Notes: generated from the sequence alone by a model not told the origin. A stretch of 32,000 bases of DNA from Candidatus Heimdallarchaeota archaeon (GCA_030614005.1 JAUWKS010000034.1:2532-34531), one strand, 5' to 3'; counted from the stretch's first letter, positions 11,951 through 13,724 are shown. Numbers and translations are program-made.

Positions 11951-12094
11951 TTTTTCTTTGTAAAAACAATTTTCTTAGAGTTGAAATAGATGTCAAAAAA
12001 CTTATTAACAATTATACTTTTGTTCCAATGACTGATTAATCCTTCTTAGTACTTAATTTCAAGAAATGAAGTGAGGTATTGAACGAAGAGATTT
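11951..12094 (+). promoter_or_regulatory. Copy 1 of a duplicated promoter plus structured 5' leader (upstream of the S8 protease)
   Basis: 124 of 144 aligned positions identical to 13586-13724 (hand alignment). Contains palindromes TTGT-N4-ACAA and TTGA-N8-TCAA, a BRE/TATA-like AAAAAACTTATTAA and a hairpin at 12038-12093. Confidence 0.8.
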
Positions 12095-12127
12095 TTTAGA
12101 CGATATATTAAACGAGGATGGTTACTA

Positions 12128-13489
12128 ATGAAAAAAGTATATTCAATACTTTTAATGATCTGCATAATTACTCCTGGCTTTATTATGTTTACAAATACTG
12201 CCAGTAGTCAACCAACATTCTTCAATTCGCAGGAACTCTACGATAACAATGTTGAACCTATGTTAGCTGCTGAATTAGAAGCTTCTGCAGTAGACAATTA
12301 CAAAGCATTGCCTAATGTCTCTCCATGGTGGGTTGACTTAGTTGATAAGGAAAATGTCGACAATGATGGAGAAGGCGTTTACATTGCTGTTTTAGATACG
12401 GGTCTACTAGATCTTTGGCCATTTTTCTTCTCACAAGGTAATATTGCTTGGGAACTTGGCAAAGGATTTACACATGACGTTTCGTGGGATGATGAATATG
12501 GACTTGTGATGTCTGAACTAAGAGATGATCGCGGGTACATAACAGATTTAGCATCTGGTCATGGAACACATGTTACTAGTACAATAATTGGTTATAACTA
12601 CAACAACTACTTCTACGTTGATGGAATCGCTCCCAAAGCAACGATTATACCAGTTCTAGTTCTAGATGCCTGGGAAGTAGATTCACCATATGGTGTTTTA
12701 CAATTATCAGGCGGAACTGATGAAATGATATCAGCAGGTATTTATTATATCGCTGATTTAGCAGATGAACTAGATGGTCCTGTGATTATCAACATGAGTC
12801 TTGGAGGTCCAAATCCAACTCCTATGATTGAGGAAGCAATAAATTATGCCATTGCAAATGGTGTTATTATTGTTTGTTCCGCAGGAAATGAAGGAGAAGC
12901 TGGAATGGGCTATCCGGGTGCTTACGATCAAGTGATTTCCACTGCTGCGTGTGGCTGGACAGAGACATTATACCGATCTTTCTGGACTGGTGAAGGATGG
13001 ATATATGATGTCCCAGAAGAACTAAATGTTCCTGACGTATTCGGTAATGAATACCAAGTATACTTAGAAGACTTCAGTAGTAGACCAAATGCTGCATTAG
13101 GGCAAAAACATCATCAGTTAGATGTTATGGCACCTGGTGCTTGGATAGTTGGTCCTTACAAACTATCATTCTCCTATGACGTTAGATATTATTATGTCTC
13201 AGGAACAAGCATGTCTGCCCCACATGTATCTGCAATTGCTGCATTGATTCTAGAAGATTATCCACATTTTGATCAAAAGGATATTGAACATATTCTTAAG
13301 ATTGCTGCTGGTGGTGTAGGACAAAATATGCTTAGAGGATTTCCCAAGGAAGCAACAAATGTTTATGTTGCATATTATATTCCTGGTTACGTCTATCTTG
13401 TATCATGGGAACAACATGATTTTGGTAGAGGATTTTTGCAATGCGACGAAGCTATGTTCTATGCTGCACATTACAAAGTAGGTCATTAA
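12128..13489 (+). CDS. Secreted subtilisin-like serine protease (S8)
   Basis: Signal peptide; catalytic triad motifs IAVLDTG, GHGTHV, GTSMSAPHV; oxyanion motif CSAGN. Confidence 0.93.
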   Translation: MKKVYSILLMICIITPGFIMFTNTASSQPTFFNSQELYDNNVEPMLAAELEASAVDNYKALPNVSPWWVDLVDKENVDNDGEGVYIAVLDTGLLDLWPFFFSQGNIAWELGKGFTHDVSWDDEYGLVMSELRDDRGYITDLASGHGTHVTSTIIGYNYNNYFYVDGIAPKATIIPVLVLDAWEVDSPYGVLQLSGGTDEMISAGIYYIADLADELDGPVIINMSLGGPNPTPMIEEAINYAIANGVIIVCSAGNEGEAGMGYPGAYDQVISTAACGWTETLYRSFWTGEGWIYDVPEELNVPDVFGNEYQVYLEDFSSRPNAALGQKHHQLDVMAPGAWIVGPYKLSFSYDVRYYYVSGTSMSAPHVSAIAALILEDYPHFDQKDIEHILKIAAGGVGQNMLRGFPKEATNVYVAYYIPGYVYLVSWEQHDFGRGFLQCDEAMFYAAHYKVGH

Positions 13490-13506
13490 AAATAAATCTC
13501 AAAAAC

Positions 13507-13570
13507 TTAGTCATTCTTCATGACTAATCTCAAATTTGATTAGTGATGAAGAACATTTATCTTTTTTTTT
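13507..13570 (+). terminator. Hairpin plus poly-T after the S8 gene, with an overlapping alternative hairpin
   Basis: TTCTTCAT-G-ACTAATC / GATTAGT-G-ATGAAGAA (13514-13553) followed by T9 (13562-13570); alternative stem TTAGTCAT/ATGACTAA (13507-13527). Confidence 0.55.
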
Positions 13571-13585
13571 AAAAATCAACTATAT

Positions 13586-13724
13586 TTTTTCTTTGTAAAA
13601 ACAATTTCTTCGTGTTGAAACAGATGTCAAAAAACTTATTAATTATTATACATTTGTTCCACTGACCGATTAGTCCTTCTTGATACTTAATTTCGAGGGA
13701 AGTGAGGTATTTCAGAAGAGATTT
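13586..13724 (+). promoter_or_regulatory. Copy 2 of the duplicated promoter plus structured 5' leader (upstream of the caspase-like protease)
   Basis: Homologous to 11951-12094; same palindromes and TATA-like box; hairpin at 13672-13723. Confidence 0.8.

Follow-up and report, generated by a model that had tools for sequence, protein, structure and literature searches.

A duplicated promoter-plus-leader module ahead of two protease genes in a Heimdallarchaeota genome

We analyzed a stretch of 32,000 nt from a Candidatus Heimdallarchaeota archaeon (GCA_030614005.1, JAUWKS010000034.1:2532-34531; the whole stretch is called the window below), in which a non-coding block of ~150 nt occurs twice, once ahead of a subtilase gene of peptidase family S8 and once ahead of a caspase-family protease gene of family C14. 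We found that the block is a real, selected, and lineage-restricted module made of a promoter and a structured 5′ leader, with a clear history of promoter capture, and that it is an ordinary kind of element. The leader folds into a long hairpin, which we propose to be a 5′-terminal stem-loop acting on the stability or the translation of the messenger RNA (mRNA); we give this reading a probability of about one half. To our knowledge, next to nothing has been learned so far about how Asgard archaea control their genes, and our search of the literature on start-site maps or cis-regulatory RNAs of these archaea found nothing relevant. A promoter and a structured leader that are delimited purely by sequence comparison may thus be a useful anchor for the study of Asgard gene control.

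Results and Discussion

The duplicated block

The source genome of the window (3.6 Mb, 33% G+C) was assembled from sediment metagenomes. The two copies of the block, 11949-12099 (copy A, before the S8 gene) and 13583-13729 (copy B, before the C14 gene), showed 85% mean column identity in a pairwise alignment. A BLAST search of the genome with the block gave 85% identity over 150 nt (expect value E = 4.8e-41), and a repeat search of the window matched 11949-12063 with 13583-13697 and, in addition, 12085-12115 with 13715-13745. The products of the two genes matched Peptidase_S8 (E = 2e-39) and Peptidase_C14 (E = 1.4e-15). They are unrelated to each other, and both have an N-terminal hydrophobic signal-like segment. 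Thus, the duplicated non-coding block ahead of non-homologous S8 and C14 genes, which had been noticed in a previous sequence-only reading of the window, was recovered in our analysis. Furthermore, homologues of the S8 protein at 60-62% identity bear the label Heimdallarchaeota in public records.

The duplicated arrangement is not an assembly artefact, because the same layout of the locus was found in an independent assembly (L099) and the junctions were spanned by contigs from two other studies.

Hairpin structure

Each copy of the leader folds into a single long unbranched hairpin with 26-27 pairs, 5 of which are G-U (Table 1). The minimum free energy (MFE) was -21.3 kcal/mol for copy A and -23.7 kcal/mol for copy B (z = -4.38 and -4.33, respectively), and 0 of 200 shuffled sequences were as stable. 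The reverse complements of the hairpins did not fold (z = -0.6 and -0.3). Both copies contain the stems AAUC-CUUC / GAAG-A-GAUU and AGUACUUAAUUUC / GAAGUGAGGUAUU, the latter with one A-G mismatch. The 5′ arm is pyrimidine-rich (UCCUUCUU) and resembles an anti-Shine-Dalgarno (anti-SD) sequence; it opposes a purine-rich 3′ arm that is full of SD-like words (GAAG and GAGG).

Among the 25 consensus pairs, none was broken between the two copies, three showed one-sided changes, and one showed a compensatory change (U-A to C-G). The five substitutions in paired columns were thus all compatible with pairing, and the loop and bulge positions differed freely. The sequence-only reading had described one long hairpin with these stems in both copies, a structured 5′ leader, and differences that always keep the pairing. 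All of this was borne out: z was about -4.4 on the + strand only, the block comprises a promoter and a leader, and every difference in the paired region preserves pairing that is under selection. The 7-nt terminal loop that it had assigned to copy A holds if the closing A-U pair is disregarded; the loop of the MFE structure is 5 nt.

Several other kinds of structure were considered and rejected by eye. The hairpin has no tandem G-A pairs, as in a K-turn, and it lacks the pair of 3-nt bulges of a bulge-helix-bulge motif. The junctions of the locus have no GTT core of an integron attC-like site, and no integrase open reading frame (ORF) was seen nearby. A small ORF in the leader was also rejected: ATG-ACT-GAT-TAA of copy A and the in-frame extension in the related contig L101 are not conserved, and a 1-nt indel separates the variants. 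The leader is therefore non-coding.

Original owner of the module

The key comparison was made with contigs that encode close homologues of the C14 protein. Below, variants A and B are the two copies in the window, variant C is that of contig L101, and variant D is that of contig L100. In L101, whose C14 protein is 96% identical in amino acids (aa), the order is a flavodoxin gene, one leader, and C14, with no S8 gene; the flavodoxin gene is the same gene that stands left of copy A in the window. In L100, L102, and L103 (C14 84% aa identical), a diacylglycerol-kinase-like (DAGK) gene is followed by one leader, C14, and then an SNF2 helicase gene as in the window.

More distant and shorter versions of the leader precede the C14 orthologues of two genomes of the same genus, G009 (~40% aa) and G007 (~30% aa). 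The G009 leader has TATACATATGTTCCA, the AUACUU/AGGUA core pairs, and the GAUGAGAUUU...GGAGAGUUAUGAGAUG tail in common with the window. The G007 leader shares the AAAAAATTTATTAAT promoter and the AAUCU...AGAU base, and it forms a 10-bp CU/GA stem (z = -3 to -4.4). In addition, a C14 paralogue on contig C71 of the source genome itself shares the promoter core AAAAATACTTATAAAG...ACATATGTTCCA, and its leader has merely a 5-bp GAAUC/GAUUC hairpin followed by CUUGG. Since homologous leaders precede C14 in all of these contigs and genomes, the module was assigned to the C14 gene family. By this comparison, the C14 gene is the native owner of the promoter and 5′ leader in the repeated block, and the stem has been lengthened in the clade of the window.

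Two further observations were made on the C14 genes. First, codons ~38-128 of the C14 gene (13855-14125) vary between strains, with dozens of differences and small indels in L099 and in the contigs of two other studies; the flanks of this segment, the leaders, and S8 are nearly identical among strains (against L099, C14 is 96% and S8 99.6% identical in aa). This suggests recombination or diversifying change in an N-terminal non-catalytic part of the protease. Second, Aragorn called a 93-nt transfer RNA (tRNA) with a CUA anticodon at C71:90626-90718, some 3.3 kb ahead of the C14 paralogue, and labelled it 'Pyl'. An amber-reading tRNA, an intron-bearing tRNA, and a false call are all conceivable here.

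Promoter core and predicted start

Over all homologues, conservation starts sharply at an A-run, which is followed by the TATA-like box CTTATTAA, and the conserved sequence spans ~-38 to +70. The promoter core of copy B is 97% identical to that of L101 and 87% identical to that of L100; the intergenic sequence further upstream is 49-53% identical. The duplication takes in ~85 nt of promoter upstream of the hairpin.

In the same genome, several tRNA genes have a box of the form CTTATAAA or CTTTAAAA at 27-31 nt upstream of the mature 5′ end, and the same kind of box also occurs in the promoters of the S8 orthologues. This spacing is a rough guide to the distance from TATA box to start, and Aragorn found only 17 tRNAs. 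From the conserved CTTATTAA box, the TATA-to-tRNA spacing, and the standard archaeal TATA-to-start spacing, the transcription start was predicted to be at the hairpin foot in both copies.

Furthermore, the interval from the TATA-like box to the predicted start contains a near-palindromic box (12016-12023 and 13650-13657 in the window; L089:1435-1446, corresponding to C71:94024 of the source genome). Its form is ACATATGT in L100, G009, and the C71 paralogue, which is the ancestral form, ACATTTGT in variants B and C, and ACTTTTGT in variant A, and it is always followed by TCCA. This box is a candidate for a transcription-factor site common to the C14 paralogues.

Selection on the pairing

To see how strongly the leader is conserved, copy B can be compared with L100. 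Identity was 47% at the four-fold degenerate sites of C14 and 49% in the upstream intergenic sequence, whereas it was 87% in the promoter core and 89% in the hairpin. Among variants A-D, 97% of the pair cells were standard pairs, compared with 45-56% when the partners were slid, and two U-G pairs were invariant. Variable columns made up 11 of the 50 paired but 16 of the 28 unpaired columns (Fisher p = 0.003). In addition, 3 pair cells were broken, whereas 6.4-9.5 were expected from random placement of the substitutions (p = 0.0002-0.05, depending on the assumed transition bias). These comparisons indicate that the hairpin is maintained by selection as a sense-strand RNA structure.

How the S8 gene acquired the module

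Orthologues of the S8 protein at 82-86% aa identity were found in four unrelated neighbourhoods (G004, G005, L106, and L107). They have their own TATA promoter, AAATGCTTTAAATAC or GAAAAACTTATTAAG, ~60 nt before the ATG, and the hairpin leader is absent from them in all four neighbourhoods. The homology of the window to the S8 orthologues of L048, L049, L106, and L107 begins at GAC[G/A]ATATATTAAACGAGG, that is, at 12100, the base after the hairpin foot, and it stops just past a conserved 3′ hairpin and T-run at ~13582. Thus, S8 is the incomer at this locus, because its orthologues elsewhere have their own promoters and match the window only from 12100 to ~13582. At both junctions of the S8 cassette, there are a few bases of similarity between the joined partners.

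The 3′ hairpin after the S8 stop codon (13501-13570) has a core at 13514-13553 (-20.5 kcal/mol), followed by a T9 run. Each of the four S8 orthologues examined is followed by the same hairpin, with differences that are in part compensatory, and this hairpin is likely a terminator.

The simplest history of the locus that fits these comparisons is an insertion of S8 together with a local duplication of the C14 module. A promoterless S8 cassette with its own SD sequence, coding sequence (CDS), and terminator was inserted between the C14 hairpin and the C14 SD sequence, and ~150 nt of promoter and hairpin were duplicated during the insertion, leaving one copy for each protease gene. Since a likely terminator lies after S8, the C14 gene would need its own copy of the promoter. 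Copy A is the more diverged one, with 83-84% identity to variants B and C; B and C are 91% identical to each other. The three derived changes of copy A in paired columns all keep the pairing, and the single compensatory change (C-G to U-A) lies in this derived S8 copy. It was also considered whether L101 had lost S8 by a deletion, through recombination of copy A with copy B. However, its leader is a mosaic of interleaved A-like and B-like states rather than the product of one A-by-B crossover, and such an origin is thus unlikely.

This history resembles promoter capture by segmental duplication or gene insertion, in which a promoterless gene gains the promoter and leader of a neighbour and direct repeats flank the inserted gene; here, short similarity is also present at both junctions. 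However, the duplicated unit here is a complete promoter-plus-leader of ~150 nt, which is far longer than a target duplication made by a transposase. The locus records how a gene gained its regulation, a promoterless protease cassette having been placed behind the duplicated control region of its neighbour, and a sister population retains the insertion-free state.

Distribution of the element

A covariance model was built from the two hairpins of the window, on which copy A scores 102 bits. It detected no further copy in the source genome or, among species-representative genomes, in 10 of the same genus and 81 others of the class. Beyond the two copies, a BLAST search with a 156-nt block found only short chance matches in the source genome and 60 relatives. 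A first pattern scan of public contig collections found nothing, and a second one found contig L102, which was already known, and a chance match in a Helicobacter genome. The relaxed pattern ATCYYTC...GARGAGAT revealed no further leader in the source genome. Furthermore, AYWTWTGTTCCA has 27 matches in this genome, and 24 of them are in unrelated sequence without such promoter context, which argues against a regulon. The element is carried only by the C14 family, with three promoters in the genome.

According to these searches, the block is neither a dispersed element nor the marker of a regulon. The sequence-only reading had proposed a regulon of extracellular proteolysis, and this proposal does not stand: there are two copies in the genome and none in the 81 genomes of the class by the covariance model, and the second copy arose by local duplication during the S8 insertion. 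A miniature inverted-repeat transposable element (MITE) or another mobile repeat was also rejected, as there are two copies in 3.6 Mb, the block has an orthologous position before C14 in other lineages, and no flanking target duplications are visible. We also found neither a recombinase nor terminal inverted repeats nor any additional copy of the duplicated unit.

Proposed role of the hairpin

We propose that the transcript would begin at the foot of the long hairpin, which is rich in A-U and G-U pairs and ends just before the SD sequence. Such a 5′-terminal stem-loop would shield the 5′ end and sequester the purine-rich, SD-like 3′ arm, and it would set the lifetime of the mRNA or its yield in translation post-transcriptionally. 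In folds of the full predicted 5′ untranslated region (UTR), the AUG was unpaired in both genes, and 0 nt of the S8 SD sequence and 2 nt of the C14 SD sequence were paired. Because the AUG is free and the SD sequence is largely free, the leader resembles a 5′-terminal stem-loop before an open ribosome-binding site. Two marks of a 5′-terminal stabiliser, a stable sense-strand structure kept by selection and an accessible downstream ribosome-binding site, were found here, and a third, a hairpin that begins a few nt from the transcription start, is predicted. We infer the start site, the action at the level of RNA, and the choice between stability and translation.

Several points weigh against this role. 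First, a TATA-like CTTAATTT lies within the 5′ arm, and if it is the real box, the start falls inside the hairpin. The start is a prediction, and the sole matching RNA run covers part of the S8 CDS and not the leader. Second, the evidence from covariation is thin, with a single compensatory pair and with 122 of 500 shuffles scoring as high as the observed data; moreover, two of the four variants had served to derive the structure that was tested. Third, stability is uneven, with z = -4.4 in the window, -2.1 in L101, -1.6 in L100, and -1.2 in G009. Finally, the conservation of both arms concerns their sequence and not their pairing alone. A pure stability hairpin does not need this, and the pattern also fits a sequence-specific binding partner or a role at the DNA level.

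The RNA run mentioned above is a marine-sediment metatranscriptome (X15), in which three contigs showed ~90-93% identity to parts of the S8 CDS (12369-13481). These contigs are probably from a related population with roughly 92% identity. No RNA run was listed as matching the stretch as a whole.

Alternative explanations

The hairpin might be an RNA operator. In this case, C14 and now also S8 would be co-regulated post-transcriptionally by a protein or small RNA that acts in trans and binds either the stem or its purine-rich arm. Because the sequence of the arms is conserved and not just their pairing, we rank this explanation next after stability or translation, and we regard it as possible though doubtful. 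For instance, both arms are 89% conserved, compared with 47-49% for neutral sequence, and the loop varies freely. Even the shortened versions of G007 and G009 retain the base motif AAUC...GA(A/U)GAGAU, and the loops of variants B, C, and D and of G007 contain GGA. However, the loops of variant A and G009 do not have GGA. In addition, the partner is hypothetical; a regulator dedicated to just two or three genes could exist but is unproven. We suggest, tentatively, that an undescribed post-transcriptional regulator of the Heimdall group (a protein or a small RNA) may read the CU-rich and GA-rich arms and govern the secreted C14 proteases, and that S8 may have been wired into its control by the duplication. 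If true, the leader would be the first defined cis-regulatory RNA in this lineage, and the growth of a regulon would have been caught in the act.

Meanwhile, the inverted repeat could act at the DNA level, either as an operator or initially transcribed region for a transcription factor or as a recombination-prone palindrome, which would account for the joining of the cassette at its foot. The extent of conservation on both sides of the predicted start, the near-palindromic ACATATGT box between the TATA box and this start, and the S8 junction exactly at the 3′ hairpin foot are consistent with it. However, 5 of the 26-27 pairs are G-U, including the two invariant U-G pairs, and in DNA such positions would be mismatched; moreover, no fold was obtained for the antisense strand. 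Furthermore, the ~30-nt arms far exceed the half-sites of typical archaeal operators, and the substitutions preserve RNA pairing. We therefore consider a role in DNA unlikely.

The sequence-only reading had also named an attenuator or a small RNA as candidates and had pointed to a U-rich tail. In this explanation, the hairpin and U-run would form an attenuator, or the element would be a short stand-alone RNA, and downstream expression would depend on regulated read-through. Archaeal RNA polymerase terminates at oligo-U tracts, the stable hairpin of copy A carries UUUUUU on its 3′ side, and the 3′ end of S8 in this lineage uses a hairpin and a T9 run. However, an uninterrupted U6 exists only in the derived S8 copy. 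The run is interrupted in the ancestral forms (UUUAUU in variants B and C and UUUCUU in variant D) and absent in G007, and the outer stem takes up most of its U residues in pairs. Nor is there an evident alternative fold that could act as an anti-terminator. In addition, strong termination would silence S8, for which this is the sole promoter. Overall, an attenuator is quite improbable.

A functionless hairpin, whose second copy is a neutral passenger of the duplication, would explain why copies A and B differ by 17% in the hairpin, near the 16% of the presumably neutral upstream part of the repeat. However, the hairpin is 89% identical between species, compared with 47-49% at neutral sites, and no change that separates A from B in a paired column breaks the pair; among these changes is the double compensatory one in copy A. 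The sequence-only reading had named a recent neutral promoter duplication without other copies as the result that would speak against a function, and this is not what was found: the older C14 homologues are conserved far above the neutral level. Thus, a neutral passenger is very unlikely.

Finally, a metabolite- or peptide-sensing riboswitch controlling extracellular proteolysis, which would fit a structured and conserved 5′ leader before secreted proteases, is hardly credible: the fold is unbranched, with a terminal loop of 4, 7, 7, and 10 nt among the four variants and varying internal loops; there is no multi-helix junction or conserved unpaired pocket (16 of the 28 unpaired columns vary); G007 and the C71 paralogue keep a short stem only; the SD sequence and AUG are accessible when the leader is folded; and no competing fold that controls the SD sequence or a terminator is evident in the full-UTR folds. 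A scan against Rfam release 15 gave no match at the gathering thresholds in the whole window and none at E up to 1 in 11900-13800, which agrees with the remark of the sequence-only reading that no riboswitch class could be recognised.

Comparison with known systems

Stabilising stem-loops at the 5′ end are known from the leaders of Escherichia coli ompA and Bacillus subtilis aprE (subtilisin), and aprE encodes an S8 protease. By analogy, such bacterial stem-loops would be the closest functional counterparts of the hairpin described here. As in those leaders, a stable hairpin lies at or a few nt from the 5′ end (here predicted), there is no ligand pocket, an accessible strong SD sequence follows, and those genes encode abundant exported proteins. 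However, the host here is an archaeon, with other decay enzymes and another 5′-end chemistry. Moreover, with 25-27 bp, the hairpin described here is far longer; its arms have a conserved sequence, and no homology in sequence links it to those leaders.

Riboswitches and other cis-regulatory leaders in Rfam share with it the 5′ UTR position and a structure kept by selection, but here there is no junction, no conserved unpaired nucleotides, no constant loop, and no fold coupled to the SD sequence or a terminator. Attenuators of the intrinsic-terminator type are similar to copy A in its hairpin with U6 on the 3′ side; they differ in that the U-tract here is unconserved in the older C14 leaders and lies largely in the stem. 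The narrow distribution and simple form of the element give it modest general impact unless a dedicated binding partner exists.

Features of the locus

The positions of the features are listed in Table 1.

Table 1. Features of the S8-C14 locus, in positions of the window
Feature	Position	Strand	Remarks
Copy A, promoter part	11949-12031	+	84-90% identical to copy B; core kept in variants C and D, G009, and the C71 paralogue
Copy A, A-run (similar to a B recognition element, BRE)	11995-12000	+	
Copy A, TATA-like box CTTATTAA	12001-12008	+	
Copy A, box ACTTTTGT-TCCA	12016-12027	+	
Copy A, predicted transcription start	~12030-12034	+	At the hairpin foot
Copy A, hairpin (S8 leader)	12032-12099	+	27 pairs, 5 G-U; UUUUUU on 3′ side (12093-12098)
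Promoterless S8 cassette	12100-13582	+	Homology limits of S8 orthologues
S8 5′ UTR remnant and SD sequence	12100-12127; SD GAGGATGG 12114-12121	+	
S8 CDS	12128-13489	+	Peptidase_S8 match
S8 terminator hairpin (likely)	~13501-13566; T9 run 13562-13570	+	
Copy B, promoter part	13583-13665	+	Alignment with copy A and homologues
Copy B, TATA-like box CTTATTAA	13635-13642	+	
Copy B, box ACATTTGT-TCCA	13650-13661	+	
Copy B, predicted transcription start	~13664-13668	+	At the hairpin foot
Copy B, hairpin (native C14 leader)	13666-13729	+	26 pairs; homologous hairpins L101:1371-1445 and L100:4945-5021
C14 SD sequence GGAGGG	13728-13733	+	First two G (13728-13729) are the last two hairpin residues
C14 (caspase-family) protease gene	13742-14815	+	Peptidase_C14 match; N-terminal signal-like segment

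Other repeats in the window

In addition to the duplicated block, two other pairs of direct repeats were found in the window. One pair is 18816-18920 and 22526-22630 (90% identity, 3.7 kb apart), and the other is 22298-22520 and 26579-26801 (87% identity, 4.3 kb apart). Furthermore, five tandem units of ~285 nt, which are 60-71% identical and share the core TATTACTGGC.TGT..GTGCA...GAT, occupy 30315-31541. They look like a repeated protein domain within a large ORF.

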